Notes under the pieces: model-generated
Seen by the model: only the letters and a program-made list of their open reading frames with translations
Told to the model about the DNA's origin: nothing
The model's database searches: none
Assembly: GCA_038826015.1 (NCBI GenBank)
Contig: JAWBOR010000001.1
Span: 1 to 46,039, forward strand
Reading direction: 5' to 3'
Source: Candidatus Bathyarchaeia archaeon
Lineage (GTDB): Archaea; Thermoproteota; Bathyarchaeia; Bathyarchaeales; DTEX01
Length of the DNA stretch: 46,039 nucleotides
Part shown: one piece after another, positions 2,763 through 37,181 of the stretch
How the letters are laid out: each line of letters begins with the position of its first letter
How positions within the stretch are numbered: the first letter of the stretch is position 1
Translations under genes and position numbers: made by a program

Positions 2763-2791
2763 GATTTTTGCGTCTAAAGTTCGAGCTCACA

Positions 2792-3463
2792 TTAGCTAAT
2801 ATCTAATATTTTCCTTGAATTTGCCATAAGTTCCGTGAGTAAAGCAAAGGCTCTTGCAGCGTCTTCCATTCGCAGTATTATTATGGTTTCTGTGAAGCAG
2901 CTGACCGTTTCTTCTATGTTAATCCTTCTTCTAGATATAGGATTGTAGAAGGCTACGATGCAGCCTGGGGTATCAACAATTCCCCTTGGACTCTGCACAA
3001 TGATTGCTGCAAGATTCTGTTTCTCGTCCAGTATCTCTTCTTCCTTAAAGACTGAACGAACGCTGTTGAAAATGTTTTGTTCAGTTATCAAAGTTAGAGT
3101 AGTCACGCCTTCCAAGACTTGAAAGAAGGCTTCTGGAAAATCAGCTGAAACAAGTCTTGCCTTTTCAAGGTTTCTTCTAGTCTTCTCGATAGATAGTTTT
3201 GCCACATCAGTTCTGAGATTTATAATGCTTCCAGCTACGACTTTGAGATATTCTGTTGTAGGCTTATACATTGCCTTAGCGCGTTTAACAGAGGTTATCA
3301 TGCCCTCAAAAGTTACCTTTCTCCCTAGGAATTCTTCAACCTTAGGTTTAAGCAAACGAGCCACAGCACTAAAATTTGCGTAGCCTCTTTCAAGCGCATC
3401 CTGAAGTGAGAGGTCATTCTCTATTAAAAATTGAACAGTTTTTGCTAGCGACATCTCGACCAA
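2792..3463 (-). CDS. Putative ACT-domain regulator of amino-acid metabolism (COG2150-like), with an N-terminal HTH-like segment
   Basis: The C-terminal part (LAAIIVQSPRGIVDTPGCIVAFYNPISRRRINIEETVSCFTETIIILRMEDAARAFALLTEL) has an ACT-like beta-alpha-beta-beta-alpha-beta pattern. The gene is divergent from argG. The assignment is from memory of the family only. Confidence 0.45.
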   Translation of the reverse strand: MVEMSLAKTVQFLIENDLSLQDALERGYANFSAVARLLKPKVEEFLGRKVTFEGMITSVKRAKAMYKPTTEYLKVVAGSIINLRTDVAKLSIEKTRRNLEKARLVSADFPEAFFQVLEGVTTLTLITEQNIFNSVRSVFKEEEILDEKQNLAAIIVQSPRGIVDTPGCIVAFYNPISRRRINIEETVSCFTETIIILRMEDAARAFALLTELMANSRKILDIS

Positions 3464-3507
3464 TTTCGGTCACACTGCTTTATTTTTACTTATACATTGG
3501 CCAAAAA

Positions 3508-3519
3508 GATTATATTTTG
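3508..3519 (+). promoter_or_regulatory. Candidate archaeal TATA box for the argG-argH-carAB block
   Basis: AGATTATATTTT lies about 40 nt upstream of the proposed TTG start at 3560. A GGAGAG Shine-Dalgarno-like element at 3545-3550 lies between them. Other A/T-rich TATA-like stretches at 3479-3496 are alternatives. Confidence 0.3.
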
Positions 3520-3559
3520 TTTTCCTTTCTTCACGGTAGAAATTGGAGAGAAAATAGAT

Positions 3560-4765
3560 TTGAAGAACAAGATAGTTCTAGCCTATTCGGGCGGTTTAGA
3601 CACATCGGTTCTTATAAAATGGCTTCAACAGAAATATGAGGCTGAAGTGATAACGGTTACGCTTGATGTAGGACAGAAAGAGGACCTTAAAGCCATTGAG
3701 GATAAGGCGAAGAAATTAGGTGTTCTAAAGCATTATTCAATAGACGCTAAAGAAGAATTCGTCAAGGACTACGTATTTCCAGCCGTAAAAGCAAACGCCC
3801 TTTATGAAGGAAAATATCCACTCAGCACAGCTCTTTCCCGTCCGCTTATAGCTTCTAAACTCGTTGAAACCGCAGAGAAAGAAGACGCCAACGCAATCGC
3901 ACATGGATGCACAGGAAAAGGCAATGACCAAGTACGCATAGAAGTCTCAGTGAAATCTTTAGCACCAAACATCAAAGTAATAGCGCCCGTTAGAGAATGG
4001 AACATGACACGGGACGCTGAAATAGAATTCGCCAAGGAACATGGCATCCCGGTTCCTGTAGACAAAAAGAAACCATACAGCATAGACCAAAACCTATGGG
4101 GACGTTCTGTTGAATGCGGGATCCTAGAGTATCCAGATAAAGAGCCTCCTGAAGACGCATATGAATGGACCGTTTCACCAGAGAAGACGCCGAACAAACC
4201 TGAATATTTATCCGTCAAATTTGAGGGAGGCGTGCCTAAGACAGTAAACGAAGAAGAGATGAATCCTATAGATTTGATTGAAACTCTTAATGAAATTGCT
4301 GGAAAACATGGTGTTGGACGCATTGATCATATTGAAGACCGTTTAGTTGGGATAAAGTCCCGAGAAGTCTATGAATGCCCAGCAGCTACAGTCATAGTAG
4401 AAGCACATAAAGATTTGGAGAAACTTGTCTTGACAAGGCATGAACTTCTCTTTAAACAACAGGTTGAATCACAGTGGGCTTATCTCGTCTACACAGGTCT
4501 CTGGATGGATCCGCTTAAAGAGGATCTTGACGCCTTCATAAATAAGACGCAGGAAAGGGTCTCAGGCGAAGTTAGGGTCAAGTTGTATAAGGGTAATATG
4601 CAGATCGTTGGTCGTTCTTCGCCGTATTCGCTTTATGACATGGACTTGGCGACATACAACATTGAAACAACATTCAATCAGTCTTCTTCAGCCGGCTTCA
4701 TAGAACTCTGGGGTTTGCCTACACAAGTCGCGAATGCTCTCAAGAAGAGGGATAAGGCGAAGTAA
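3560..4765 (+). CDS. argG: Argininosuccinate synthase
   Basis: Contains the N-terminal ATP pyrophosphatase motif VLAYSGGLDTS, then HGCTGKGNDQVR and DQNLWGRS blocks. The ORF opens at 3497, but its first 21 codons are hydrophobic and unlike ArgG. The TTG at 3560 (MKNKIVLAYSGGLDTS) follows GGAGAG, so the start is uncertain within 3497-3560. Confidence 0.93.
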   Translation: MKNKIVLAYSGGLDTSVLIKWLQQKYEAEVITVTLDVGQKEDLKAIEDKAKKLGVLKHYSIDAKEEFVKDYVFPAVKANALYEGKYPLSTALSRPLIASKLVETAEKEDANAIAHGCTGKGNDQVRIEVSVKSLAPNIKVIAPVREWNMTRDAEIEFAKEHGIPVPVDKKKPYSIDQNLWGRSVECGILEYPDKEPPEDAYEWTVSPEKTPNKPEYLSVKFEGGVPKTVNEEEMNPIDLIETLNEIAGKHGVGRIDHIEDRLVGIKSREVYECPAATVIVEAHKDLEKLVLTRHELLFKQQVESQWAYLVYTGLWMDPLKEDLDAFINKTQERVSGEVRVKLYKGNMQIVGRSSPYSLYDMDLATYNIETTFNQSSSAGFIELWGLPTQVANALKKRDKAK

Positions 4766-10794: not shown

Positions 10795-11700
10795 TTATGC
10801 ATTCAAAGGTTTTAATTCTGCCAGCACTTCTTCTTTTTTCTTGTAATTTTTCGATGGTAGGTCTTTCAATAATTCGCTGAGTCTGATTTGTTTTCCGTCT
10901 TCTAATTCGATGAGCCTCCAACCTAGTTTCTTTATCAACATGCCTTTAGTTGACGGATACTTAGTCTTCTCAATTAAAGCTTTAACTGATTCCCAACCAG
11001 TCACTTCGGTTAATGGTGGAAAACGACCGTTTTCAAGAAAATAGAGAAAACGTTTACTATCCTCAAACATGGACAGGTTGTTAAAGAGCACAAAAACTTT
11101 CTTATTTGCCGTGTCAAAAGGCTTTATTAAATCATACAACTTAGCAAGCTCCTCATTCATATATTGATAATAATACATTTGTGCCCCAAGACCGTGTAAT
11201 CTAAAGTAGGCTAATTGATCAGTGAAAACAGGCATTGCTCTTAAAGGGTCAGTAACATGAACTACGTTTACTCTTTCTAAAACTTCTTTAAGCTTATCTC
11301 TGAATTCGTCTTCTTCCCAAAGAGGACCCCGAGTCTCCCAAACTAAAGTCAAATTGTCGCGGTCAATTTTTTCAAAAAATTTTGTAGCTTCTCCTAGGCT
11401 GTTAGGCTTGAAGGACGCAGCGGTCTGGATTAAAAGTATTTCAGCGTTAAGTGTTCGACATATCTCTTTCATCCTTTCAATTGGTTCTCTTGCCAACTCT
11501 AATTTTAACTTGTATTTGTGGCTTATGTCTTGATGTGCCTTAACCGTGAACTCAAAATCTCTTGGAGCTTTTTCTCTCCACTTCTTTACTGTTTGGAGTT
11601 TCGGATACTTATAAAAGGTGCTGTTTAATTCTACAAGCCGAAAAGCCTCCTGGTATTTTCCCACGGAAACCGGATAACCGCAACAACCAACCTTAATCAT
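10795..11700 (-). CDS. DUF72 (UPF0759/YecE-like) protein with an extra C-terminal ~70 aa DUF2795-like module
   Basis: The N-terminus (IKVGCCGYP..YQEAFRLVELNSTFYKYP....WREKAPRDFEFTVKAHQDISH) fits the DUF72 pattern. The C-terminal tail (YPSTKGMLIKKLGW...LLKDLPSKNYKKKEEVLAEL) resembles DUF2795. The start overlaps the upstream gene stop by 4 nt. Confidence 0.75.
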   Translation of the reverse strand: MIKVGCCGYPVSVGKYQEAFRLVELNSTFYKYPKLQTVKKWREKAPRDFEFTVKAHQDISHKYKLKLELAREPIERMKEICRTLNAEILLIQTAASFKPNSLGEATKFFEKIDRDNLTLVWETRGPLWEEDEFRDKLKEVLERVNVVHVTDPLRAMPVFTDQLAYFRLHGLGAQMYYYQYMNEELAKLYDLIKPFDTANKKVFVLFNNLSMFEDSKRFLYFLENGRFPPLTEVTGWESVKALIEKTKYPSTKGMLIKKLGWRLIELEDGKQIRLSELLKDLPSKNYKKKEEVLAELKPLNA

Positions 11701-12452
11701 TTTCTTATTTTTCCATTTTTTTCTTTCAACAAACTCATGCGGAGTTTTCTAAGGGCCCTTAATAGATTCTCGAAACTCTTAGCTTTAGAATGAATCAGAA
11801 TTACGCCGTCGTTCTCAGCCAATTGAATGTCCATTTTCTCAGGCTGAAAAATGTGGTAAACGATAACTGCGGGTTTTAAAAGGCTGAATCGAAGCGCAAG
11901 CATAGGGGTTCTTTCATGTTTTATATTAGTGAATATGAGGGCTCTTTGGAGTGTTTTCCCAAATATCTGTGGAAGTTTCCATCTTGGAAGTTTTGTTATA
12001 ACTGTTTCGCTGTCTATAATTGTGTATCCGCTAACATTTTTCGATTCATTATATGTTATTATTTGACCTGAAATCGCTCTGCTGAAGCGTTTTATACCAA
12101 CTGGAACCGAGAACTCTTCTATGTGCAATATTCCATCTTTCGAAAAGTCTGTTAGCCCTAAGAGTTCATGCGTTAAGTCTATTCCATCTTTTTTATTAAT
12201 CTCAAAAAGAGCAAAAACGAACCTTTTAATGAATTGGATTCCAGGATTCTTCCTCCTACCGTTTTCGTAGTCGCTTATAACTGAAGGCGAAATTTCAAGC
12301 TCCTTTGCAAGTTGAGTCAGAGAAATAGAAAATTTTTCACGCCACAGCCTCATAAGAGAGCCAGGCTCCTCTGAGAGAACTATCGCTCCAGCGATTTTCC
12401 CCATTAAAACCTTCTGTTCATCCGAAGGCGAAGCCAAGCCATTTTCCCTCAT
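11697..12452 (-). CDS. XRE-type HTH transcriptional regulator (archaeal COG1395-like)
   Basis: The HTH_3 core is SISLTQLAKELEISPSVISDYENGRRKNP, followed by a C-terminal domain of about 160 aa with unknown function. Confidence 0.65.
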   Translation of the reverse strand: MRENGLASPSDEQKVLMGKIAGAIVLSEEPGSLMRLWREKFSISLTQLAKELEISPSVISDYENGRRKNPGIQFIKRFVFALFEINKKDGIDLTHELLGLTDFSKDGILHIEEFSVPVGIKRFSRAISGQIITYNESKNVSGYTIIDSETVITKLPRWKLPQIFGKTLQRALIFTNIKHERTPMLALRFSLLKPAVIVYHIFQPEKMDIQLAENDGVILIHSKAKSFENLLRALRKLRMSLLKEKNGKIRK

Positions 12453-12496: not shown

Positions 12497-13573
12497 CTAC
12501 ACGAAACTCGTAATTTGTTTCTGTTCCTCTTGCTTTCGAACAAAGTTTGACAATTTGACGCCTACCCTTCTCACTTCAAGGTCGGTTTCGTTTAAAAGTT
12601 TTTCAAAAAGTTCCTTCACAGCTTTCTTAAAAGTTTCCAGTTCATTAATCGAGTTTTCAAAAGTTTTGGTTCGACTGTGAATACTCATATCAGCCATAAC
12701 TGCGGCTATTCCAACCGACTTGTAACTAAGATTTCGTTCCCTAAGCCTTGCGTAAACATCCTCGCATAACTGGTCGGTCTTCTCCAAGATAGTTTTCAAA
12801 TCTCGCGTATCTTCTTTTAAAGTTGTAATCCGACTTATAGATTCACTCTCACCTCTTTCTTGAACAGGCGACTCATCTATCCCATTTGAAGCATAATGAA
12901 GATAGATTCCAAACTTCCTTCCAAAAATCTCAATCAATCTCTGCACATCAATCTTTGCTAAATCGCCAATTGTCCTTATTCCTAAACTTTCCATCTTCAG
13001 TTCTGTTTTCTTACCAATACCGATGAGACGACCTATAGGCAGAGGAAACAAGAAGCTCTTAACTTGCTCGGGAGTAACTGTGGTTAATCCATCAGGCTTT
13101 TGAATGCCAGAGGCAATTTTGGCGATAAGTTTATTCGGACCCACACCGATTGAAATCGTGATTCCTTGTTTAGCTCTAACTTCTTCCTTTATTCTTTGAG
13201 CTAATTTTTCGGCAGTTACAAAGTCTCCGTTAACTTTTTGGCTTATGTCCAAATATGCTTCATCTATTCCAACCTGTTCAAAACGATCTGCATAGATTCT
13301 TAAAATATCCATTATCTTATCTGAAACCTCTCCGTAAAACTCATGGTCAACGGGAAGAAAAACAGCATCCGTGCCTTTCAATTTCTTCTTAGCCAAGGAG
13401 ATGGAGATTCCAGATTTTACGCCGTATTTTCGGGCTATATAGTTAGCTGTGCTTACAGCCCCGCTATATTCGCTTCGTCCAGAATATACGCACACTACCA
13501 CTGGTTTGCCTTTAAGAGAAGGATTTCTAAGCTCTTCACACTGGGCGAAAAAATAGTCAAAATCTACTAACAT
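12497..13573 (-). CDS. dbh: Y-family DNA polymerase IV (Dpo4/DinB type)
   Basis: Contains MLVDFDYFFAQCEELRNPSLKGKPVVV (catalytic DxD region) and SIDEAYLDI (catalytic DE), plus thumb and little-finger length. The ATG at 13573 gives the canonical N-terminus; the ORF also extends to a TTG at 13606. Confidence 0.9.
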   Translation of the reverse strand: MLVDFDYFFAQCEELRNPSLKGKPVVVCVYSGRSEYSGAVSTANYIARKYGVKSGISISLAKKKLKGTDAVFLPVDHEFYGEVSDKIMDILRIYADRFEQVGIDEAYLDISQKVNGDFVTAEKLAQRIKEEVRAKQGITISIGVGPNKLIAKIASGIQKPDGLTTVTPEQVKSFLFPLPIGRLIGIGKKTELKMESLGIRTIGDLAKIDVQRLIEIFGRKFGIYLHYASNGIDESPVQERGESESISRITTLKEDTRDLKTILEKTDQLCEDVYARLRERNLSYKSVGIAAVMADMSIHSRTKTFENSINELETFKKAVKELFEKLLNETDLEVRRVGVKLSNFVRKQEEQKQITSFV

Positions 13574-13627
13574 TATGATTCTTTCTTGCAAAGATTGCTG
13601 CCTCAAACATGGTTTTAATCTACGGGC

Positions 13628-15715
13628 TTAACGTTCAACTAACACCGTGCTTTGATTGTTCCTCTTTTCGAGGCGTATCACGCGGTCAGCTTTCTCTGCA
13701 AAAGCCTCACTGTGAGTCACAGCTATAACTTGTTCCACGGTTTTAAGACGAGATATTGATTCTGCCAATCGGTCAATTGAACCGTCTTCTCTTCCTAAGC
13801 TTTCTGTCGGTTCGTCGAGAAGAAGCATCCGCAGCCCATGTCCTGATCTCCACTGCATTATCAGCTGCCCAATACCAATACGATAAGCAAATGCAAGCAA
13901 AGTTCTTTCACCACCTGAAAGATTTAAGGCGTTTCTTTCTTGACCGCCCTCAGCTTCTATTAGCGGAGTATAATTCTCATCTATTTTTAAGTTGATTATT
14001 GAACCTTCATCTCCGGTAAGTTCATCTAAAACTTGCTGTATGACCCGTTCTAGATAAGTTACGAATTCGCTTCTTAGCTTTGGTTGAATACTCCGATAGG
14101 CTTGCCGAATCTCTTGAATGAGCCCGATGATTTTCTTGACTTTCTCTAATCGGTCAATCTTTTTCTGGGCAATGTCCAACCGTTCTTTCAAAGATTCAAG
14201 TCTTAAGAAAACCTGGTTTTTTTGAGATTCTATATTTTGCACTTTATACTTAAGGTTAGAATACTGCTCAAAAATAGCTTTGTACAGATTCTCTGCATCT
14301 TCCAACTTTGTTAAGTCAAATTCCATTATTTTCAAGCGTAATTCAGCAAGTTGACCCTTGAGCATTTCCGCCTCTTTTTGTTTTTCATTGAACTCCTCTA
14401 ATGCGTTATTAATGAGTTTATCTTCATCTTCTATTTGAATTAATATTCCATCTATTTTAGTATGAATCATTCTTAAGTCAGAAATGGCAGAACTTAATAT
14501 GCTTCTGACACTTTCAAGTTCACGAATGTTTCTTTCACGTTCGCTAAGCCGCTGTTTGGTTTCAGATAACTCCTGATAAAATTGTTTCATAATCCGATCT
14601 TTGTATTCGAATGTAAGTGATTGAAGGCATAATGGACATCGACTTTCCTTTGCAAGGTTAGATATGCGTTGTGTAATTTTTTTAATCTCGTTTTTAGCAC
14701 TCTCTTCTTCGCTTTGGGTGCTTGAAATCTGCCCTATTAAACCTTCTATGTAATCTTGAATTTGTTCAACATTTAGATCAGATGACAGCCCGATCTCTTG
14801 GATTTTGCGCCTATTGTCGTTTTCTTGAATTTTTAAAGATTCAAGGCGTTTTTCCAATTCTTCTTTTCTTTTTCTTCTGGTTTCGATTTCATTGACCAAC
14901 CTAAGAGACAAGCTTTCTATGTTTCTTATTTTAAGTTGAATTTCAGTTTCTGCGGCTTTGAACTCCTCATTTTTTCGACGTATAGCTTCCAGTTCTTCTA
15001 AATGAGATGATACTTCCTTAAGTTTCGCCTCCACCCCAGAAAGTTGTTGTTTCGCTTCTTCCAGCTCTGATTCCTTTGACGCTAAGTCTTTAACAGACTC
15101 TTCATATTTTGCTTGTAGATCCCTAATTCCAGCTATGTCCGGGTCACGTTCGAGGGAAGCGCTTTCGCTTTCATACCATCCCGATATTGGACGTAGATTT
15201 GTCCATGATATTTCATAGTCGTAAAGTCCGAATAATTGATCAAGTTTTCCCTGCCTTTCCCGTGGAGGTAGATCTAAAACATCTTTCAGATGTTCCTGCC
15301 GTACCCAGATTATTTCATGAAAAATACTTCTGTCAATGTCGGTTATGGCTTTCAACTGTTCGGCAACCGCGTCGCTCTTCAATTCGGCTATGAGCCTTTC
15401 TCCTTCGAAGAGCTTAAGTTGTCCAGTGTCTTGGCTTATACGTCCGTTTTGTCTTTTCAGTGCCCTCCAAATCGTGTATTTTTTCCCGTTTTGAACAAAA
15501 TTTAACGCTACTTTACCGACATCATCCCCTTCTCTGAGAAGATACTCGTAGCTCCTTCCCAAGGGCTCACCGAACAAGGCAAAATCGATGGCGTAAAGAA
15601 TGCTAGTTTTCCCTGTTCCTACGCCTCCAACAAGACAGTTGAAACCATCTGAGAAATTGATCAAGGTTTTCACGTGGGACCTTATGTTTTCAAGCATTAT
15701 ACTTTCAATTTTCAT
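13628..15715 (-). CDS. rad50: Rad50 ATPase (short form, 695 aa)
   Basis: Contains Walker A GGVGTGKTS, long heptad-rich arms, a central zinc-hook CPLC, signature LSGGERTLLAFAYR, Walker B LLLLDEPT and D-loop/His THS. The start overlaps the mre11 end by 11 nt. Confidence 0.9.
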   Translation of the reverse strand: MKIESIMLENIRSHVKTLINFSDGFNCLVGGVGTGKTSILYAIDFALFGEPLGRSYEYLLREGDDVGKVALNFVQNGKKYTIWRALKRQNGRISQDTGQLKLFEGERLIAELKSDAVAEQLKAITDIDRSIFHEIIWVRQEHLKDVLDLPPRERQGKLDQLFGLYDYEISWTNLRPISGWYESESASLERDPDIAGIRDLQAKYEESVKDLASKESELEEAKQQLSGVEAKLKEVSSHLEELEAIRRKNEEFKAAETEIQLKIRNIESLSLRLVNEIETRRKRKEELEKRLESLKIQENDNRRKIQEIGLSSDLNVEQIQDYIEGLIGQISSTQSEEESAKNEIKKITQRISNLAKESRCPLCLQSLTFEYKDRIMKQFYQELSETKQRLSERERNIRELESVRSILSSAISDLRMIHTKIDGILIQIEDEDKLINNALEEFNEKQKEAEMLKGQLAELRLKIMEFDLTKLEDAENLYKAIFEQYSNLKYKVQNIESQKNQVFLRLESLKERLDIAQKKIDRLEKVKKIIGLIQEIRQAYRSIQPKLRSEFVTYLERVIQQVLDELTGDEGSIINLKIDENYTPLIEAEGGQERNALNLSGGERTLLAFAYRIGIGQLIMQWRSGHGLRMLLLDEPTESLGREDGSIDRLAESISRLKTVEQVIAVTHSEAFAEKADRVIRLEKRNNQSTVLVER

Positions 15716-16961
15716 CGAAAACGCCCTCCAAAAGCTCTTTCACCTTGTCTTCATCTTCCTTTATTAGATATTGAATCAGATCCAACGCCAAATGAGCATT
15801 CTTTTTTGCTTCCTGTTCGTTGTGCCGCTGAGAAAAGAATTGAAGGAAATATTCAAAGGACTTCGTTTTCAAATCTTTCATCTCACTTTCAAAGATTGCT
15901 TGAACTGTTTCTTCAGGGAAACCTTTCTCTTTCATTAAGACTAATGGATGCACAATAAGCGCTTTTTCGGCGGCGGCCCTTATTTTAGATAAATCTAACT
16001 CTCTTCGAGTGGATTCAACTGAAAGGGTTCCTCTTAAAACCGGAATTACAACTGCGCCTGGCTCATCAGCTTCTTTGACGGCTTGCACCATCAGCTCAGT
16101 TATCTTCTGAGGGGTGAGACCTGTGAAGTCTCTGTCTAAGATTTTGAAGCGACGTGGGCTTTCCAGCTTTACGCGGTTTATATTCATGTCACCGCTTTGG
16201 CTTACTTCAACGTGATAGAACCCTTTCTCAACCTCTGCATCTTCATAGCTCACGGTTTCGGTGGAGCCGCTATAAACGAGCATTCCTCTTTTGAAGGGAA
16301 GCTGCCAAGGAACGTGAATGTGTCCCCCCGCGTAGTAATTGAACCCATCTGGGACATAATCCGGTGAAGCCTCGGCGGCTACATTTGGATATCCTTTTAC
16401 TCCATGAAGGTCAAGAATCATGTGAAAGACGAATATGTTAAAAACATCAGGGTTGGGCTCAGGTTTCTTAATCTCATAAAAGGCTGGCAGCTGCTTTTCG
16501 GTTCTTTCTCTAGTTCTAAAATTAGGAACCCCGTAGACGTAACAATATTCGGTTTTCCAACAAGCCTTCTCATGCCTAGGAAGATAATAAACAAGTCCAG
16601 CGCTATCCAAAGGGTTCAAGATTGTCCCCGTGATCACATTTGGAGCAGCATCATGACCTCCGTCAACAGCGAGGACGGATATTCCAGCTTCCTTCAGTTT
16701 TCTAAAATTTGTTATCGCCTTCTCCAAAGTTGTGTTTAATGGTCGCGCGTAATGGAATAGGTCTCCGGCTATGATCATGAAGTCAGGCTTCAACTCAATG
16801 GTTTTCTCCACAACTTCGCTGAACGATCTGTCAAAATCATCACGTCGCGTAGAAAGATTATATTGTTCATAACCCAGATGAAGATCAGCCACATGAACAA
16901 AGCTGAACGATTTCAAAGCAGCTTTACCCCTTATTGATTTATCGTGTTCCAACAATATCAT
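15705..16961 (-). CDS. mre11: Mre11 nuclease (calcineurin-like metallophosphoesterase)
   Basis: Phosphoesterase motifs are present: FVHVADLHLG, IAGDLFH, DGGHDA and GGHIHV. The ATG at 16961 is preferred; the ORF also extends to a TTG at 16979. Confidence 0.9.
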   Translation of the reverse strand: MILLEHDKSIRGKAALKSFSFVHVADLHLGYEQYNLSTRRDDFDRSFSEVVEKTIELKPDFMIIAGDLFHYARPLNTTLEKAITNFRKLKEAGISVLAVDGGHDAAPNVITGTILNPLDSAGLVYYLPRHEKACWKTEYCYVYGVPNFRTRERTEKQLPAFYEIKKPEPNPDVFNIFVFHMILDLHGVKGYPNVAAEASPDYVPDGFNYYAGGHIHVPWQLPFKRGMLVYSGSTETVSYEDAEVEKGFYHVEVSQSGDMNINRVKLESPRRFKILDRDFTGLTPQKITELMVQAVKEADEPGAVVIPVLRGTLSVESTRRELDLSKIRAAAEKALIVHPLVLMKEKGFPEETVQAIFESEMKDLKTKSFEYFLQFFSQRHNEQEAKKNAHLALDLIQYLIKEDEDKVKELLEGVFDEN

Positions 16962-17044
16962 AATTATAGCCGAAAACAAATATCTTTATTGTTTGAAATT
17001 TGGCATATTTGCGATGAATAAATCTGAACCGAGGGAGATAACTG

Positions 17045-20459: not shown

Positions 20460-20563
20460 CAAAAAATAACCTAAATGTTTATTATTTTGTTTATTTAATG
20501 GAGACGTGCCGAGGGACTCCTTAATAAGAGGAATATTTCACTTATGCTCTTTAAGAGGAATCC

Positions 20564-22606
20564 GTGTTAATGTTGATTCGAGAGATAATCTTAGAAAATT
20601 TCATGTCCTACGAATATTCTAGAATACCTCTTAAATCAGGAGTAAACCTCATTTGTGGCCCAAACGGAGCTGGTAAATCTTCTATTCTTTTGGGGATATC
20701 AGTTGCTTTGGGTCAGTCTTACACTGAACGTTCAAAAAAGCTCAGCGATCTAATCCGATGGGGTAAAGACATAGGTCGGGTAACACTAGTTCTAGATAAC
20801 TCCAAGAGAAAAGATAGGCGTCCAATACCTAAGATAAACAAGGACCAAATCTTTTTAACTCGAGTTCTTAGAAGAGACGGAAAGTATTGGTTTGAACTTG
20901 ACAACGCCTCTGTAGATAGAGCTGACGTTTTAAGACTCTTATCTCGCTTCCAAGTTGACCCAGACAACATGCTGATTATAATGCATCAAGACATGATTGA
21001 ACAGTTCATTGTGCTTTCGCCACAAGAAAAACTTAAACTTATTGAAGAAGCAGTCGGGCTTGAACCATACAGAAGAAACGTTTTGGAAGCCCGAAATAAG
21101 CTGAGCCGCATTCTTAGCCAAGAAGAATCTCTCGGAAAGATGCTTGAGTCAGCTGAACAAACGCTCAATTATTGGCGTGAACAATATGATAGATTTCAAC
21201 AGAAGAAACAGCTTATGTTGAAAAGACGTTTCTTAGAACGTGAACTCGCGTGGGCAGAAGTTTCCGCAAGAGAAACAGCAGTCTTAGAACTTGAAAAAGA
21301 AATCAACTATAAAAAACAAAGCCTCGAAAAGATTGAAAACACGATTAAGCTTTCTGAAGAGGAAATACGCAAGATTCAAAGCGGGACTAAAAATCTAAAA
21401 GATGAGTGGGAAAGAATCTTCGAGGAAAGGTTTCTGCTTGAAAAGGAAAAAGCGCAGCATGAAATTAATATTCTGAAAGATGAAGAGAACGCAAAAGAAC
21501 TGAGACATTGGATTGAACTTGGGCAAAACGGTGTACAGAAGATTTTAGATAACACTGTTTTTCTAGAGAATTTTGCTGGCTCAAACCCGAACGATTTGGA
21601 AAGCCGAATCAAAGAGATAAGAAGCATCTCAGAAGATTTGAACATGTGGTTCCAAAATCTCGGCAGTCGGTTAAGAGATTTAGAAGAGTCTGTTGATATT
21701 TCAAGCAAAAAAATAGCCGATCTCGATGCCAAACTTGTTGACGTTAAAAATAGGATGCAGAATATAAACCGTGAAATTGACGAGTTCTACAACCGAATTA
21801 TTGATGAAAAGGTTAATTTGGCGATACTTGAATATCAGAAAAAAGAGTTAACCAAAGAAGTAAGCGACTTAGACAGTAACCTGAAAGTTTTGCGTTCCAA
21901 CCTCGATATAGCTGTCACAAAAGCTGGAGAGATGGGTCCACGTGTTGCATCCCTAAGAAGCATGGATATGGTTCTAGACGAGATTAGAATTATAGACGGG
22001 CGCGTAGCCGCCTTAGCAGATGTTTCCGAAGACATAGAGCAGATGTATGAATCTTATTCCAAGCTCTACTTTGAACTTAAAGAGAAAGCCCGCATAGCCG
22101 CAGAAAACCGCGAGAAAGCCTTAGAAGAAATCAAGACAAGAACCGAATCTTGGAAAACCGTGATTCGCGACCTTCTAAATCACATCAGCCTTGAATACCA
22201 AAGAATTCTTTCTCAAGCAGGTGCTACAGGGACGGTCAGGTTAATCAATGAGCAAGACATCGAAGCCGCAGGAGTTGAAATACTTGTTGGATTTAAGGGT
22301 TCTCAGCCTGCTCCGTTAAGCATTTATTCTCAAAGCGGTGGCGAAAGAAGCACGGCAACAATGTCTTTTCTACTTGCCTTACAACAACGTATTAGGTCTC
22401 CTTTCCGAGCTGTAGACGAATACGATGTTCACATGGATCCGAAAAACCGCGAGGTGATTGCCAACCTTCTGATTTCAGCAGTGAGCGGAGGAGAAGCTCA
22501 ATATTTGGCAATAACTCCTAACCAGATGCTTTTCGAAGGAAAAGATGTTCACATAATTACTGTTCAGAATATCGAAGGAATCTCCCTAGTCAAGGAGGTT
22601 ACCTGA
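20564..22606 (+). CDS. Short SMC-family ATPase with Smc5/Smc6-like head motifs
   Basis: The N-head has IILENFMSY, Walker A GPNGAGKSS and FQVDPDNMLIIMHQDMIEQF...PQEKLKLIEEAVGL. About 380 aa of mostly heptad-rich sequence follows. The C-head has signature QSGGERSTATMSFLLALQ, PFRAVDEYDVHMDPKNRE (Walker B/D-loop) and AQYLAITPN. Start is GTG 20564 or ATG 20570. Confidence 0.8.
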   Translation: MLMLIREIILENFMSYEYSRIPLKSGVNLICGPNGAGKSSILLGISVALGQSYTERSKKLSDLIRWGKDIGRVTLVLDNSKRKDRRPIPKINKDQIFLTRVLRRDGKYWFELDNASVDRADVLRLLSRFQVDPDNMLIIMHQDMIEQFIVLSPQEKLKLIEEAVGLEPYRRNVLEARNKLSRILSQEESLGKMLESAEQTLNYWREQYDRFQQKKQLMLKRRFLERELAWAEVSARETAVLELEKEINYKKQSLEKIENTIKLSEEEIRKIQSGTKNLKDEWERIFEERFLLEKEKAQHEINILKDEENAKELRHWIELGQNGVQKILDNTVFLENFAGSNPNDLESRIKEIRSISEDLNMWFQNLGSRLRDLEESVDISSKKIADLDAKLVDVKNRMQNINREIDEFYNRIIDEKVNLAILEYQKKELTKEVSDLDSNLKVLRSNLDIAVTKAGEMGPRVASLRSMDMVLDEIRIIDGRVAALADVSEDIEQMYESYSKLYFELKEKARIAAENREKALEEIKTRTESWKTVIRDLLNHISLEYQRILSQAGATGTVRLINEQDIEAAGVEILVGFKGSQPAPLSIYSQSGGERSTATMSFLLALQQRIRSPFRAVDEYDVHMDPKNREVIANLLISAVSGGEAQYLAITPNQMLFEGKDVHIITVQNIEGISLVKEVT

Positions 22607-23421
22607 TGCAATCAGCACAGAAGACTAAAAGACTCGCTAAAGAAGAGCTGCAAAGAATAATTGAATTCTGCAAATCCGTTGAAAGCAAAGGCTTGAACCC
22701 TTTTCTAGTCGAAGTGAATGACCTCATAGCCGTAATCAAGGAATATTTTCCACAATGGGAAAAACCCGATGAGCTAAGCTTAGACGCGGAAGCCCTCAAC
22801 CAGATTGCCACAATTATTAAAATGCAAAGTGAGTGGATAAAGCATAGGGCAACATCGCTTTATAGGGATCCCTTCCTAATCGAAGAGAAACTTCGCAGTC
22901 TATCCATTGAAAAGATAGGAGAAATTTTCTTAGAGGCTTGGCGTCCTATAGTTGAGTTTGAACAGATATCGATCCGCGGCTTAAGCGAAGCATTGAGATA
23001 CTGGAATGAGCTGCCGCCGCTAGATGAAAGATGGCGAAAAACTGGCTTTTCACTCATCGAAACTGGAGCAACGACCCGTGAAGAGTTGATTATGCAAGGT
23101 ATACTGTTAAATGAAACCTTCTCTGCAGAATTAGAAAAATTATGGGATGAGTTGAAGAGAGTTTCCGCTGAAAGCGGGAAGGTTAGATATTGGAATTTTA
23201 TTGGAGCTGAAACTTATGGAGAAACAGTGAAACGGGCTTATCTCGTGAGTTTTCTTGTAACGTACGGCTACGCAACATTGGAAATTCGCCCACTTGAAGA
23301 AGAAATTTTTATAAAACCTTACAAGAAAACCGCATCTAAGAAAGAGACGCAGTCAATTTCTTTCCCCATATCAATTAGCTTTGAAGCGTGGAAAAGATGG
23401 AGAGAAAACCAAGAGGCTTAG
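22606..23421 (+). CDS. Kleisin-like protein (ScpA/Nse4-like)
   Basis: Its ATG overlaps the SMC stop (TGATG) and is preceded by AAGGAGGT. The C-terminal block GETVKRAYLVSFLVTYGYATLEIRPLEEEIFIKP resembles the kleisin C-terminal winged helix, as in the ScpA FLALLEL block and Nse4_C TVENLFYLSFL. The N-terminal helical region could form a neck-binding HTH. Confidence 0.6.
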   Translation: MQSAQKTKRLAKEELQRIIEFCKSVESKGLNPFLVEVNDLIAVIKEYFPQWEKPDELSLDAEALNQIATIIKMQSEWIKHRATSLYRDPFLIEEKLRSLSIEKIGEIFLEAWRPIVEFEQISIRGLSEALRYWNELPPLDERWRKTGFSLIETGATTREELIMQGILLNETFSAELEKLWDELKRVSAESGKVRYWNFIGAETYGETVKRAYLVSFLVTYGYATLEIRPLEEEIFIKPYKKTASKKETQSISFPISISFEAWKRWRENQEA

Positions 23422-23996
23422 AACGGAAATCCTACTACGCATCCCAAATGAAGAAGGCAGTTCACCTCTTATTTTATAAGAGACATGCAATGCCAGGTGT
23501 CAAAGGATGGGAATTAAGGAAAAGACTAGGCTCAGACTATCCGAAAGTTATAAACCTGCTTGACGATTTTCTAGAGAAGCTTGATCTAACTGTAAAAACG
23601 GTTTTCGAAGAGGAATCAACAGTACCTGAGAAGCCTTCACTTGAACAACTTGACAAGGCAAGATTCTATGTGACGCTGAGGGGAAGTATTACACCTAAGG
23701 AAGCGAAACTTGTGGGTTGGCGAATAGACGACTTAGCAGCTTTAGCTGTTTCACTTGGTTTTATAATATCGAAGGGTGGAAAATCTTCACGAAAAGATGT
23801 TGAAAACTTGTTGCGAAGCAAACTTCCAGGCTGGAGAGTTGATATAAACCTAAACCGGTATATAAGATATGGCTATTTAATCGAAGATGAGAATGGTCAG
23901 CTCTATCTTGGTTGGCGAACAAGAGCTGAAGTTGACCAAAAGAAACTCATTGACTTATTCTTAGAAACAGAAGTCGAGTTGTCAAGTGAAAAATAA
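23397..23996 (+). CDS. Tandem winged-helix kite-like protein (MAGE/Nse3-like, ScpB-analogous)
   Basis: Two WH-like halves are present: KKAVHLLFYKRHAMPGVKGWELRKRLG...FLEKLDLTVKTVF and LAALAVSLGFIISKGGKSSRKDVENLL...RYIRYGYLIEDENGQLYLGWRTRAEVDQKKLIDLF. The last block parallels the MAGE YLEYRQV...YEFLWGPRA..ETSK.KVL block. Start is ambiguous among GTG 23388, ATG 23397 and ATG 23448. Confidence 0.55.
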   Translation: MERKPRGLERKSYYASQMKKAVHLLFYKRHAMPGVKGWELRKRLGSDYPKVINLLDDFLEKLDLTVKTVFEEESTVPEKPSLEQLDKARFYVTLRGSITPKEAKLVGWRIDDLAALAVSLGFIISKGGKSSRKDVENLLRSKLPGWRVDINLNRYIRYGYLIEDENGQLYLGWRTRAEVDQKKLIDLFLETEVELSSEK

Positions 23997-24158
23997 CACA
24001 GCGTTTCAGAAAAATGAAAGTGATGAAAAGACTGCGTTGGTCATAAACAAATTGTAATATTCGTTATTATGTTTTTCCTTTTAGTTTCCTTGATTTTTCT
24101 TTGTAGTGAAAAGAAATAATAATCCTTTCTTGATTTAGAATAAGTAGAAGGCAAATTG

Positions 24159-26745: not shown

Positions 26746-26859
26746 TTAGTTCAGCTCCATCCAACTGGTTAAGAACTACACCAAGTCTTACTGATTGTTG
26801 TTCAAAAAGTTATTTTTTAAGCCTTTTATGAATCTTTTGTTTAATATTTTTTGGTTAAC

Positions 26860-27552
26860 ATGCATATTGAACGTGAAGTTTTAGTTTCTGTTTTGAAGAC
26901 GACTGCTACAGGTGAAGCATATATCGAGGACATCAGCAAAGAATCGCGAATCCCACATAGGCTAGTTAAAAAAATTTTAGTAGAAGATTCAAAAATTGGA
27001 ATAATCCAGATAAAAGGAAACTCAGTCGTGGTCAACGAAGAACAACGCTTGAAGACTGCACTTAAAGCCATAGAGCTAGGCGCCGATATTGAAAGGGTTT
27101 GCAGTTTCCTTAGCTGGAAAGAATTTGAAGACATATCCATTATAGCATTCGAGGCAAATGATTACGCTGTCAAGAAACATTTCCGCTTCAGCGAAAAGGG
27201 AAGAAAATGGGAAATCGATATACTCGGACTCAAAGAGCCGATTATTATTTCAACAGATTGTAAACATTGGCATCACGGTTGGAGAGAAGCCGCTGCTGTA
27301 AAAGCTGTTGAGAGCCAAGTTAAACGAACAAAAATTTTAGCAGAAGCATCCTCATCTTTGCGCGATAGGATAAACATAGCGGGATGGAGACATGGCTATT
27401 TCGTGCCGCTTGTTTTATCACTTATTCCTCCCGCGTTTAAGTTTTATGAGAGCACACCTGTTGTCCCAGTGTTACAACTCAGAAACTTCCTCCATGAATT
27501 GCCTGCCTATCTAAATGAGATTACTCATTACATAAAATCCTTCGAATTCTAA
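26860..27552 (+). CDS. wHTH + PD-(D/E)xK restriction-endonuclease-like (Mrr-cat-like) protein
   Basis: The N-terminal wHTH-like segment is EAYIEDISKESRIPHRLVKKIL. The nuclease core has SWKEFEDISIIAFEANDYAV, then WEIDILG, then IISTDCKHW (E...D...D-x-K layout). The ATG at 26860 is preferred over the TTG at 26851. Confidence 0.55.
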   Translation: MHIEREVLVSVLKTTATGEAYIEDISKESRIPHRLVKKILVEDSKIGIIQIKGNSVVVNEEQRLKTALKAIELGADIERVCSFLSWKEFEDISIIAFEANDYAVKKHFRFSEKGRKWEIDILGLKEPIIISTDCKHWHHGWREAAAVKAVESQVKRTKILAEASSSLRDRINIAGWRHGYFVPLVLSLIPPAFKFYESTPVVPVLQLRNFLHELPAYLNEITHYIKSFEF

Positions 27553-33811: not shown

Positions 33812-34756
33812 TTGTTTATAATTCTAAATTCCATGAAACCAATTGGTCTGGTTTTTGGAGATAGGCTGATGCTTGTCAAGACATTGAAGACGGAATCTGA
33901 AAACAAATTTGTCATTGAGAGGATTATGTATACTAGGCGTTACTCTCTAGCTCTAGATAAAGAAAAATGTGTTGGGTGTGAAATCTGTAAAATCGTTTGT
34001 CCATGGGAAGCTATCGAAATTATTAAACCAATTAAAATAGAGGGGAAGAAACTGAGCCGCCCACAGATTACGATTGATGAGAAAAAATGCGAATACTGTG
34101 GTATATGCAACGTAATGTGTCCGTTTGGTGCACTGACCCTTAAAGTTAACAACAAAGAGTATATTCCAGTCTTAAAAACAGAGAGCTTTCCTCAGATAAT
34201 TCATGAAATCACGATTGACGAAACAAAATGCCCAATTGATTGTAACATATGCGAACAATCTTGCCCATTTAATCTAATTAAAGTGAGCACAGAAAAGATA
34301 GACAATTTCTCAGCCAGGGTCAAAGTGAGTGTAGACAAAGAACACTGTCCAGGCTGTCGTTTATGTGAAGTTAAGTGTCCACACGGCGCAATTCATGTTA
34401 GGAAAACTATTCTAGGCTCAATTAAAATAAACCTGGAAAAATGTCCTGAGAACTGCCATGACTGCAAAGATGTTTGTCCAATTCCTGGTGTTTTAATTGA
34501 GCTAGCGGATTCTAAGGTTCATGCTAATGATTCATTTTGCGTTTACTGTGGCGCTTGTAAAATTGCGTGCCCTGTTGAAGGAGCTTTATTAATTGATAGA
34601 ACTTCCATACATCACACTTCAGTTCGTTCCGGTGCATGGAATAAAGCACTTGAAAAGTTGTCTTCAACAAAAGATATAGCCAAGGAGCTTCGGAGCAAAT
34701 CTGTAATGAGGACTAAAAACTCTGTTGAGAGGCTTCAAGGTTGGAGGGCGACTTAA
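33812..34756 (+). CDS. Polyferredoxin with six CxxCxxCxxxCP [4Fe-4S] motifs
   Basis: The six motifs are CVGCEICKIVCP, CEYCGICNVMCP, CPIDCNICEQSCP, CPGCRLCEVKCP, CPENCHDCKDVCP and CVYCGACKIACP. The start is uncertain among TTG 33812, ATG 33834 and a later ATG. Confidence 0.8.
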   Translation: MFIILNSMKPIGLVFGDRLMLVKTLKTESENKFVIERIMYTRRYSLALDKEKCVGCEICKIVCPWEAIEIIKPIKIEGKKLSRPQITIDEKKCEYCGICNVMCPFGALTLKVNNKEYIPVLKTESFPQIIHEITIDETKCPIDCNICEQSCPFNLIKVSTEKIDNFSARVKVSVDKEHCPGCRLCEVKCPHGAIHVRKTILGSIKINLEKCPENCHDCKDVCPIPGVLIELADSKVHANDSFCVYCGACKIACPVEGALLIDRTSIHHTSVRSGAWNKALEKLSSTKDIAKELRSKSVMRTKNSVERLQGWRAT

Positions 34757-34757
34757 A

Positions 34758-37181
34758 ATGTCAGAGGAACCTAGAATCGGAGTTTTTGTTTGTCACTGCG
34801 GACTAAACATAGCAGGCGTTATTGATGTAAAAGCGGTAACGGAATATGCACGCACTTTGCCAAATGTCGTTTTCGCTGTAGACAATCGTTACACATGTTC
34901 TGATCCTGGACAAGAAGAGATAAAAAAGGCCATAAAAAAGCACAACTTGAACCGCGTGATTGTAGCAGCTTGTTCTCCACGGATGCACGAATTCACTTTT
35001 CGTCGAACCGTAGCCGAAAGTGGTTTAAATCCATATCTCTGTGAAATGGCTAACATTCGAGAACATTGCTCATGGTGTCACCCCAGCATGCCTAAAGAGG
35101 CAACTGAGAAGGCAAAAGAAATCGTTAAGATAGCTGTTGCCAAGGCTAGGTTACTTAACCCCCTAAAGCCTTTGGAAGTACCGGTTACAAACAAGGCTCT
35201 TGTTATCGGCGGCGGAATTGCTGGAATAAACTCGGCACTAGACTTAGCCGAAATGGGTTTCAAGGTTTACTTAGTTGAGAAGAGTGAAAGTATTGGCGGG
35301 CACATGGCTCAGTTAGACAAAACTTTCCCAACATTGGATTGCTCTATCTGTATTGAAGGCCCAAAGATGGTTGATGTCGCCCGTCACCCAAATATTGAAA
35401 TTATCTCTTTTGCGGAAATTATCCGTGTAGAAGGTTACACAGGAAATTTTAGAGTTAAGGTGAGAAAAAATCCACGTTACGTGATTGAATCAAACTGCAC
35501 AGGTTGCGGAGAATGTCGAGATGTTTGCCCAATCGAATACCCAAATGAATGGGACATGAATATGGGTGTTAGAAAAGCAATCTCTGTCCCCTTCGAGCAA
35601 GCTGTTCCACTTGTTTATACGATAAACATGGATTATTGCATTGAATGTTATAAGTGCGTGGATGCTTGTGGAACCCGTCAGGCTATAGATTTTAGTCAGA
35701 AACCTGAGGATATTGAACTTGAAGTTGGTACCATCATCATTGCAACAGGCTACGATATCTATTTGCCTGAAGAAGGCAACGTTTACGGATACGGCAAATA
35801 TAGTAATGTTATAACGGGACTAGAGTACGAAAGGTTGATTTTAGCTGCAGGACCAACAGGAGGTCACATTGTTCGAGCTTCAGATGGAAAAAGACCAAAT
35901 GTCATAGCGTTTATTCAATGTGTTGGTTCTCGAGACGTAAATAAGTTTCCGTACTGCTCAGGTTTTTGTTGCATGTACACGCTTAAGCAAGCTATTCAGT
36001 TTAAGGAACATTACAAAGATTCAGATGTCTATGTTTTATACATGGATCTACGAAGCAACTTCAAGGGCTATGAAGAGTTTTATAACAGAGCCAGAGAGAT
36101 GGGGATCACCTTCATCAGAGGTAGAGTCTCAAAAATTCTAGAAGATCCTGAAACTTGCAATCTCATCATACGTTCGGAGGATACGTTGCTCGGAGAACCT
36201 ATTGAGCTTGAGGTGGAACTTGTAGTTCTAGCCACAGCTGCTGTTCCACGTAAAGACGCAGGTGATGTTGCAAGAATTATTAACATAAGCCGAGGTACAG
36301 ACGGATTCTTCATGGAAAGTCATCCTAAACTGAAGCCTTTAGATACACCAGTTGACGGCGTCTTCTTAGCGGGAGGCTGTCAAGGACCTAAAGATATTCC
36401 ATATAGTGTTTCACAAGGAAGCGGAGCCGCAGCCCGCGCTGCGACAATTCTTTCAAAGCCTTCGGTGAAGATTGAACCCATAGTATCAGTTGTTGACCCG
36501 GAAAAGTGTAGAAATGTGAATGGAAAATGCGGCATATGTGCGTCTAAGTGTCCATTTGGCTCCATAAAAATCGAGCCTCGCACTGCAGCTGAAGTTATAT
36601 CGGCTATGTGTCACGGCTGTGGAGTATGTGTAGCTGAGTGCCCAGCTGACGCCATTACACAAATGCATTTCACCGATGCACAGATCTTCGCTCAGATTGA
36701 TGCTGCTTTAGAGAATAACGCTGCTGATAAGATCCTGGGTTTCCTTTGCAACTGGTGTTCTTATGCTGGTGCTGATTTAGCTGGGACAAGCCGTTTTGAG
36801 TATCCGCCAAATCTGAGGGCGATTAGGGTAATGTGTTCTGGACGCGTCGACCGTGACTTTGTTCTTGGAGCCTTCAGAAAAGGCGCAGGCATGGTTCTCG
36901 TTGGCGCTTGTCATCTCCCTTACGACTGCCATTATATTGATGGAAATTGGAAGATGAAGGCTCGAATGGAATCTTTGGCAAAGGTCTTGGAGAAGCTTGG
37001 ATTAACCCCGGAGAGGTTCAGAATTGAGTATATATCTGCAGCTGAAGGCATCAAGTTTGCACAGGTAATCCAAGAAATGACGGAAAAAATGAAAGAGATC
37101 GGAAGAAACAAAATTATAGCCGAAAACGAAAAGTTAAAGCCCCACCTAGATCGCATGTTAAATAAGAAGAAGCAAGAATAG
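34758..37181 (+). CDS. hdrA: Heterodisulfide reductase subunit A fused to an MvhD/FlpD-like domain
   Basis: Contains the N-terminal Cys cluster GVFVCHCGLNIAG, FAD motif VIGGGIAGINSALDLA, TLDCSICIEGPKM and four ferredoxin-type motifs. The C-terminal block ILGFLCNWCSYAGADLAG...IRVMCSGRVD...GACHLPYDCHY is typical of MvhD. The ATG at 34758 follows GGAGGG and the polyferredoxin stop. Confidence 0.9.
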   Translation: MSEEPRIGVFVCHCGLNIAGVIDVKAVTEYARTLPNVVFAVDNRYTCSDPGQEEIKKAIKKHNLNRVIVAACSPRMHEFTFRRTVAESGLNPYLCEMANIREHCSWCHPSMPKEATEKAKEIVKIAVAKARLLNPLKPLEVPVTNKALVIGGGIAGINSALDLAEMGFKVYLVEKSESIGGHMAQLDKTFPTLDCSICIEGPKMVDVARHPNIEIISFAEIIRVEGYTGNFRVKVRKNPRYVIESNCTGCGECRDVCPIEYPNEWDMNMGVRKAISVPFEQAVPLVYTINMDYCIECYKCVDACGTRQAIDFSQKPEDIELEVGTIIIATGYDIYLPEEGNVYGYGKYSNVITGLEYERLILAAGPTGGHIVRASDGKRPNVIAFIQCVGSRDVNKFPYCSGFCCMYTLKQAIQFKEHYKDSDVYVLYMDLRSNFKGYEEFYNRAREMGITFIRGRVSKILEDPETCNLIIRSEDTLLGEPIELEVELVVLATAAVPRKDAGDVARIINISRGTDGFFMESHPKLKPLDTPVDGVFLAGGCQGPKDIPYSVSQGSGAAARAATILSKPSVKIEPIVSVVDPEKCRNVNGKCGICASKCPFGSIKIEPRTAAEVISAMCHGCGVCVAECPADAITQMHFTDAQIFAQIDAALENNAADKILGFLCNWCSYAGADLAGTSRFEYPPNLRAIRVMCSGRVDRDFVLGAFRKGAGMVLVGACHLPYDCHYIDGNWKMKARMESLAKVLEKLGLTPERFRIEYISAAEGIKFAQVIQEMTEKMKEIGRNKIIAENEKLKPHLDRMLNKKKQE

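Follow-up and report, generated by a model that had tools for sequence, protein, structure and literature searches.

A Bathyarchaeia operon that probably encodes an SMC5/6-related SMC-kleisin-kite complex with a short, apparently hinge-less ATPase

We analyzed 46,039 nucleotides (nt) of DNA from a Candidatus Bathyarchaeia archaeon (Thermoproteota, of the TACK group; contig JAWBOR010000001.1, positions 1 to 46,039; the window in what follows), in which three adjoining genes on the + strand code for an SMC ATPase, a kleisin and a kite protein. Together these genes probably form the operon for an archaeal SMC5/6-related SMC complex, orthologous to the operons described from TACK and Asgard archaea by van Hooff, Raas, Tromer and Eme (bioRxiv 10.1101/2024.01.07.573240; 2024, v2 2025). 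Each of the three proteins can be assigned to a fold and family. The ATPase motifs are intact, the genes are translationally coupled and keep their order in related genomes, and they lie in a core chromosomal context.

The three open reading frames (ORFs) run from 20564 to 22606 (680 aa from a GTG), 22606 to 23421 (271 aa) and 23388 to 23996 (202 aa from a GTG). The SMC probably starts at the ATG at 20570 (MLIREI..., 678 aa) because homologues start at MLI..., which places the gene at 20570..22606 with the GTG at 20564 as the alternative; residue numbers of the SMC follow the 680-aa numbering from the GTG throughout. For the kite the ATG at 23397 is the most likely start (199 aa, 23397..23996; alternative GTG at 23388), as homologues align from there and the database copy also has 199 aa. 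At the first junction the Shine-Dalgarno-like AAGGAGGT (22592-22599), read from the sequence 6 nt 5' of the kleisin ATG, is followed by TACC and then by TGATG (22604-22608), in which the SMC stop TGA (22604-22606) and the kleisin ATG (22606) have one base in common. At the second, the kite start overlaps the end of the kleisin gene (stop TAG 23419-23421) by 25 nt from the ATG or 34 nt from the GTG. The gene coordinates, the TGATG and the second overlap bear out the original prediction, made from the DNA letters and a list of ORFs, that these are three translationally coupled genes, and the peptides it quoted (FQVDPDNMLIIMHQDMIEQF, QSGGERSTATMSFLLALQ, PFRAVDEYDVHMDPKNRE and AQYLAITPN) are all present in the encoded proteins. 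Each protein had thousands of matches at the thresholds used, and the best 120 for each were 56-81% identical and of matching length. As the matches are plentiful and similar in length, the ORFs are real genes rather than chance ORFs. The named close homologues are nearly all from Bathyarchaeia and are labelled 'AAA family ATPase', 'chromosome segregation ATPase' or 'hypothetical protein'.

The first gene product matches Pfam SMC_N (E 1.7e-32). Its layout comprises an N-terminal head (residues 1-165), an N-terminal helix (167-335), an apex loop (336-342), a C-terminal helix (343-551, interrupted in the AlphaFold model at 458-466 and 484-489) and a C-terminal head extending to residue 680. Motif scans located a Walker A motif (GPNGAGKS, residues 32-39, 20657..20680), a Q-loop (IIMHQ, 138-142), an ABC signature (SGGER, 591-595, 22334..22348) that aligns to QSGGERAVST of Smc5, and a Walker B motif (FRAVDE, 614-619, 22403..22420) followed by the D-loop YDVHMD; homologue alignments support both Walker motifs. 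Across 33 homologues almost every residue of Walker A, Q-loop, signature and Walker B is invariant. In Walker A these are G32, P33, N34, G35, G37, K38 and S39, with A or S at position 36; in the signature they are S591, G592, E594 and R595, with G593 nearly so. Distant homologues also have SGGER, and DE(Y/F)DVH(M/L)D is common to the family of this SMC, its distant members included. With the motif residues almost all invariant, the SMC should, by prediction, be an active ATPase. The SGGER form is that of yeast Smc5, unlike SGGEK.

Searched at full length against PDB sequences, the SMC was most similar to yeast Smc5 (6e-33), then to Pyrococcus Smc (5e-29) and Smc6 (4.5e-26). The two head halves were also searched separately to take out coiled-coil bias. 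The C-terminal half (540-680) scored 62.7 bits with yeast Smc5, 58.1 with human SMC5, 45.8 with human SMC6, 44.8 with Pyrococcus Smc and about 30 with Smc3, and aligned to yeast Smc5 over QSGGER, PFR-VDE---MD and QY--ITP. For the N-terminal half (3-172) the scores were 66.5 bits for Smc6, 59.2 for Smc5, 53.6 for Pyrococcus Smc and 52 for Smc2. In a Foldseek search with the AlphaFold model the leading matches were Smc6, Smc5 and the Pyrococcus Smc head. The Smc5/6-like ATPase heads proposed originally are thus upheld: both halves score Smc5 or Smc6 over archaeal Smc, and the NCBIfam cut-offs for canonical SMC, Rad50 and the archaea-specific SMC-related protein (ASRP) are missed widely.

With its approximately 680 aa the ATPase is close in length to ASRP (model length 593) and to the short Rad50 encoded elsewhere in the window (695 aa), and NCBIfam gives weak matches to Rad50 (90.5 bits) and ASRP (NF045487, 75.8 bits). 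It might therefore be a Rad50- or ASRP/ClsN-type SMC-related protein with two unrelated genes downstream. We regard this as extremely unlikely. The scores lie far under the cut-offs of 700 and 300 bits, and the protein lacks a zinc hook, since a motif scan detected no CxxC and its only Cys lies in the head. A separate Mre11-Rad50 pair is encoded at 13628-16979. Strict synteny ties both downstream genes to the SMC gene, and they have the character of kleisin and kite.

The second gene (22606..23421) encodes a protein whose residues 199-267 (approximately nt 23200-23406) match Pfam Nse4_C (E 1.3e-4, 22.6 bits). The same Pfam family is matched by 18 of 31 close homologues and by three of five distant ones. 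A single-sequence search against the PDB returned nothing useful, and a narrow family profile found human EID3 as its sole match, a weak one (E 0.21). EID3 is a paralogue of Nse4. When the profile was widened with the five distant members, the top four matches were all Nse4 or EID3 (yeast Nse4 2.2e-3, EID3 0.019), and no ScpA, Scc1 or Rad21 chain was in the result list. These matches support the identification of the second gene product, judged by its C-terminal winged helix, as an Nse4-related kleisin, and a kleisin-type winged helix at this end had been predicted.

The third protein was modelled by AlphaFold (predicted local distance difference test score, pLDDT, 76.6) as two winged-helix domains preceded by a long helix at the N-terminus. 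Foldseek with this model ranked the PDB entries in the order Nse3 (7dg2_C, 6.6e-4), MAGE-A4 (8.8e-4), MAGE-G1/NSE3 (1.2e-3), JetB (1.6e-3) and MAGE-A11, with ScpB, Nse1/3/4 entries and MukE at lower ranks. Searches of the PDB with the single protein or a narrow profile were uninformative, and only a widened profile reached Nse3 and Nse1: built from 34 diverse members, it matched Nse3/MAGE at 1.3e-4, MAGE-G1 at 6.1e-4 and NSE1 at 6.4e-4. A designed helical repeat protein took the top rank in this search and was disregarded, as no stretch of it passed alone. Among the 34 family members, Pfam matches were to SMC_Nse1 in eight, to MAGE in two and to SMC_ScpB in one (E 0.072); no RING-type family was among the Pfam matches of the 199-aa window kite. 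The kite family is narrow: at E up to 0.001, no more than 135 representatives turned up when it was searched exhaustively by profile. The expectation of two winged-helix halves resembling MAGE and Nse3 agrees with the modelled tandem winged helices and with the Foldseek and profile matches, and an Nse1/3(MAGE)-like kite is supported as the product of the third gene.

The subunit assignments also bear on whether the trio could be the canonical Smc-ScpA-ScpB condensin of this organism in shortened form. Its SMC-kleisin-kite order is that of many archaeal smc-scpA-scpB clusters, and TIGR02169, the model for canonical SMC, is the best NCBIfam match of the ATPase by raw score. That score, however, is 199.8 bits against a cut-off of 729.4, and the protein has no SMC_hinge match. 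The kleisin profile lists Nse4 and EID3 and no ScpA chain, Pfam gives the kleisin no ScpA match either, and the kite ranks Nse3 and Nse1 above ScpB. In the published tables of van Hooff et al., most of the Bathyarchaeia sampled encode a separate ScpB-like kite alongside the trio, and one has a full second cluster. We consider it very unlikely that the trio is the canonical condensin.

Relatives of the SMC were found in at least 583 stretches of GTDB species genomes. Among the best 80 of these loci, which represent Bathyarchaeia, 74 carry the three genes in unchanged order (SMC, kleisin, kite), and the junctions are short or overlap. Those not intact have contigs that end early, the SMC alone (L020, L021, L050), no kite (L038) or an insertion (L054), and the loci of the last three kinds, in few Bathyarchaeia genomes, indicate that the operon is broken up occasionally. 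In L054 the insertion is a 540-aa ORF (2185-3807) between the SMC and kleisin genes. A second scan used an alignment of the whole family and gave 79 further loci, among them loci from Thermoplasmata, Nitrososphaeria/Thaumarchaeota, Conexivisphaerales, Culexmicrobium and contig QMVU01000006.1 (L101); the trio is complete in 66 of the 79. The contig-set name QMVU01 is also that of a Korarchaeales family-level lineage listed in a published table with Nse4-related and Nse1/3-related neighbours. Several distant kite representatives lie on contigs too short to reveal the neighbouring genes. A survey of the synteny of the trio across archaea had been suggested at the outset, and the order is kept in most loci of both scans.

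Two loci of the archaeal type are filed under bacterial metagenome-assembled genomes (named Krumholzibacteriaceae and Acidoferrum). L058 (DATKLC010000037.1) carries the whole archaeal trio at the usual identity, and L112 (DASQZS010000013.1) has the SMC gene and the start of the kleisin gene before the contig ends. Binning contamination rather than transfer is the most likely explanation for archaeal genes under these names. In a distant metagenomic trio (L082, 1654-2289), genes for a Csa3/MarR-like regulator and a PD-(D/E)XK nuclease lie a few kb 5' of the SMC gene.

The distribution and surroundings of the operon are also informative about a possible role in immunity. Wadjet (JetABCD) shares the SMC, kleisin and kite architecture, JetB is in the Foldseek list of the kite, PADLOC gives the SMC a weak JetC match (51.7 bits, partial, over a stretch of coiled coil), and eukaryotic Smc5/6 is reported to restrict viral DNA (PMC9458440). 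The operon could on these grounds serve mainly against plasmids and viruses, in the manner of Wadjet or of Smc5/6 restriction of extrachromosomal DNA. However, no JetD/Toprim nuclease or other effector is encoded in or beside it, the kleisin and the kite have no PADLOC match, and the SMC has only generic ATPase matches there. The neighbouring genes are of the housekeeping type, and the GC content is even. Occurrence in the 583 or more GTDB stretches with order and length kept is the pattern of a core gene and not of a patchy defence island, and viral contigs contained no full-length relatives of the SMC, only remote partial P-loop matches. A main function in immunity is accordingly improbable.

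The remaining question about the identity of the trio is whether its likeness to Smc5/6 reflects specific kinship. The complex could work as we describe below and yet be no relative of Smc5/6, the SMC being a divergent archaeal paralogue whose resemblance stems from ancestral or fast-evolving characters (long-branch effects) with no specific sister relationship. The margins over canonical archaeal Smc are indeed modest (62.7 against 44.8 bits and 66.5 against 53.6 bits). Its grouping with Smc5/6 depends on published trees in which support for the key node is mixed (59%/70%/0.97, the first value being the maximum-likelihood bootstrap) and monophyly of all eukaryotic SMCs is not rejected (approximately unbiased test, p-AU 0.317). 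The apparent absence of the hinge, treated below, also means that these proteins are not simply 'ancestral-like' Smc5/6. Yet the three subunits agree independently, as both head halves point to Smc5/6, the kleisin to Nse4 and the kite to Nse3 and Nse1. In the published kleisin tree Nse4 and the archaeal clade group together with strong support, while a monophyletic group of Nse4 and the condensin and cohesin kleisins is rejected (p-AU 0.002). We therefore see a small but appreciable chance that the trio is a divergent paralogue and retain its assignment to the SMC5/6-related complexes.

Several further points weigh against that assignment. The SMC heads were modelled poorly, with pLDDT of about 42-55 in parts. 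The Nse4_C score of the window kleisin lies under the Pfam gathering score of 26, and the E-values of the kleisin profile against the PDB are only about 2e-3. The window kite alone has no meaningful Pfam match, and its Foldseek template modelling (TM) scores are low (0.30-0.39); because the angle between the two domains differs in the model, the ranking and not the superposition is the evidence here. Lastly, we infer the stoichiometry, the clamping of DNA and the cellular role by analogy with related complexes.

The arms of the SMC set it apart from canonical SMC proteins. In the AlphaFold monomer they form a plain helical hairpin, in which the continuous helix 167-335 is followed by a 7-residue loop and the return helix 343-551, whose two breaks lie near the heads, with pLDDT of 81-91 over most of the arm length. 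The predicted apex loop (residues 336-342, 21569..21589) occupies the place where a hinge would sit. No SMC_hinge match was obtained from Pfam at E<=1 for the window SMC or at E<=0.1 for four distant homologues. Alignment columns of the heads and of the coil next to them have conservation values of 0.7-0.95, and the minimum, 0.34, is reached at residues 321-340, at the apex. The apex is therefore the least conserved stretch, the opposite of the pattern expected from a dimerization domain. Distant homologues (33-41% identical) differ in length almost entirely by central deletions. Across 79 diverse genomes the SMC is 582-692 aa long (median 647), and in four metagenomic trios 558-630 aa, giving 558-692 aa for the whole family. 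An N-terminal helix of about 169 residues corresponds to an arm of about 25 nm, around half the 49 nm given for the canonical Smc arm in PMC5526789.

Apparently, then, the SMC has neither a hinge domain nor a zinc hook and is of half length across the family. Against this stands the dependence of the hinge's absence on the prediction of a monomer, and a small dimer interface at the apex is possible. The archaeal SMC5/6-related complex may thus be a natural hinge-less SMC-kleisin-kite machine, with an SMC hairpin of about 25 nm that ends in a variable apex loop and with heads, kleisin and kites alone to close the ring and hold the dimer; we offer this tentatively, giving it somewhat less than even weight. 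We found no mention of the SMC length of about 560-690 aa or of an absent hinge in the accessible portions of Yoshinaga and Inagaki 2021 (PMC8665677), van Hooff et al. and their supplements, nor of a hinge-less half-length SMC of this type in those of the ASRP paper. Reports of 'hinge-less' SMC variants, treated there as a curiosity, are confined to marine Actinobacteria (PMC12153180). Within the otherwise variable distal arm, residues 281-300 (21404-21463) form an island of conservation (0.72; consensus LFEERLxLEREKAxHE). The stretch predicted to pair with it in antiparallel is unconserved, and the island is missing from distant family members. It may be a docking or arm-contact site specific to Bathyarchaeia.

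A mechanism can be proposed from the architecture of Smc-ScpAB, MukBEF and Smc5/6. The SMC is presumably a homodimer and the kite presumably a dimer. One kleisin would bridge the SMC homodimer asymmetrically, its N-terminus binding one SMC at the neck and its C-terminal winged helix binding the opposite head at the cap, and the kite dimer would sit on the middle of the kleisin. Head engagement driven by ATP would clamp DNA atop the heads, within the kleisin compartment. Because the arms seem hinge-less, the heads, kleisin and kites would have to hold the dimer together, perhaps aided by packing of one arm against the other. Without a hinge the compartment between the arms would be open unless arm tips or shafts associate, and the complex would be an ATP-gated DNA clamp or tether more than a large ring closed by a hinge. 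As to its role, maintaining or repairing the genome, apart from the work of canonical Smc-ScpAB, seems the most likely, with moderate to low certainty; restriction of foreign DNA has little support.

The operon family is already known from comparative genomics, and the novelty implied for this operon in the original prediction did not hold. Yoshinaga and Inagaki described 80 'SMC5/6-related' archaeal SMCs, 66 of them from TACK archaea including Bathyarchaeota. A canonical SMC co-occurs with 44 of the 80, separate homodimeric complexes were proposed, and their trees put Bathyarchaeota sequences of this type with Smc5 and Smc6. Van Hooff et al. added Nse4-related kleisins and Nse1/3-like kites. 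Kleisin and kite genes adjoin in 31 of 31 cases, usually downstream of the SMC5/6-related SMC, and the adjacency in the window matches this pattern. Complete SMC5/6-related operons are reported there from TACK and Asgard archaea. Their Table S3 covers most Bathyarchaeia orders, with Bathyarchaeota E29_bin60 (SOJC01000029.1_1-3) as the worked example, and the Asgard archaeon P. syntrophicum has an orthologue (NZ_CP042905.1_495-497). The view that the complex lacks biochemical characterization in archaea fared better, as our literature searches found no biochemical or structural study of it.

With its significance already recognized in print, the window operon is one more orthologue and not a discovery. 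Our subunit-by-subunit reanalysis independently confirms the published assignment at this locus. An archaeal Smc5/6-like complex bears on how eukaryotes gained a third SMC complex, and three small proteins, probably homodimeric, make an attractive minimal system for the biochemistry and structure of DNA clamping of the Smc5/6 type. If anything here adds to what is published, it is the hinge-less half-length SMC. Evolutionary scenarios and mechanistic models should account for an SMC that is uniformly of half length and apparently hinge-less. If this feature is true and unreported, the hinge-less SMCs are a derived side branch and no stand-in for a hinge-bearing Smc5/6 ancestor; if true, they also offer a minimal system for asking what an SMC complex achieves without a hinge.

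The AT-rich intergenic stretch 5' of the operon (20460..20569, + strand) reads as a candidate archaeal promoter and short leader, with candidate TATA-like elements TTTATTTAA at 20490-20498 and CTTAATAA at 20520-20527 and a GAGG in the leader at 20556-20559. Scans for sigma-70 promoters and intrinsic terminators were at background level, these models not being meaningful for an archaeon. On the other side, the intergenic stretch 23997..24155 (+ strand) has T-rich tracts (approximately 24073-24105) and is the probable end of the operon, with proB next. Upstream lie genes for carB, an epimerase, a phosphoribosyltransferase and a HAD hydrolase, and downstream proB and proA. The immediate neighbours of the trio are thus HAD and proB, and no other gene belongs to the operon. 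GC content is even, and the 46-kb window encodes no tRNA and shows no island-like shift in composition around the operon.

A repair cluster lies on the - strand at 12497-16979, 3.6 kb upstream of the operon. By family matches it comprises Mre11 (15705-16979), the short Rad50 (13628-15715; a motif scan located its zinc hook, CPLC, at residue 360) and PolIV/Dpo4 (12497-13606; NCBIfam 340.7 bits against a cut-off of 339), and beside it, after PolIV/Dpo4, is a gene for a helix-turn-helix regulator (11697-12452). A divergent Mre11-Rad50 pair is found at most 6 kb from the trio in 10 of the best 80 loci, all of them closer relatives from Bathyarchaeia. This adjacency lends weak support to a link with repair, and shared ancestry could explain it. 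Two other genes on the + strand were also noted. An 818-aa protein (34725-37181) with FAD/NAD-binding, several 4Fe-4S and C-terminal MvhD/FlpD domains is, by its predicted domains, an HdrA-MvhD-like fusion of a kind typical for anaerobic metabolism with electron bifurcation. A 233-aa ORF 3' of proA (26851-27552) has no Pfam or NCBIfam match at E 1e-5, and no homologue was found among the genes flanking those best 80 loci.

Compared with known systems, the window SMC resembles Rad50, ASRP/ClsN, RecN and the hinge-less actinobacterial SMC variants in having a coiled coil that turns back on itself with no canonical hinge. Rad50 and ASRP, unlike the window SMC, have a CxxC zinc hook. To our knowledge none of these proteins pairs with a kleisin and a kite. 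Wadjet, MksBEF and MukBEF do share an SMC-like ATPase with kleisin and kite, and JetB and MukE are among the structural matches of the window kite. JetC- and MukB-type ATPases, however, have a hinge and are far longer (the PADLOC JetC models have 1068-1473 positions), and the window trio lacks the JetD nuclease. Bacterial and archaeal Smc-ScpAB have the SMC-kleisin-kite architecture and operon order of the trio, and like them the trio presumably has an SMC homodimer and a kite dimer. It differs in an SMC that fails the SMC equivalog cut-off and has no SMC_hinge match, and in subunits of the Nse4 and Nse1/3 archetypes rather than ScpA and ScpB.

The eukaryotic Smc5/6-Nse4-Nse1/Nse3 core provides the best sequence or structure matches for all three window proteins. 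The two have SGGER, PFR-VDE, QY--ITP, an Nse4-type C-terminal winged helix and MAGE-type tandem winged helices in common. The eukaryotic complex uses the pair Smc5 and Smc6, whereas the window operon has one SMC gene, the other SMC_N protein of the window being Rad50. It likewise has two kites, Nse1 (RING) and Nse3, where the operon has one, and Nse2, Nse5 and Nse6, none of which is in the operon. The arms of the window SMC are about half as long, with no hinge domain predicted. The original prediction called the SMC short without remarking on the hinge, whose apparent lack makes the label of a 'minimal counterpart of the Smc5/6 core', given there, only partly apt. The closest likeness is to the published archaeal SMC5/6-related complex, Bathyarchaeia included, which has these three subunits in this order and from which nothing essential sets the window trio apart; its authors, too, took a lone SMC gene to mean a homodimer.

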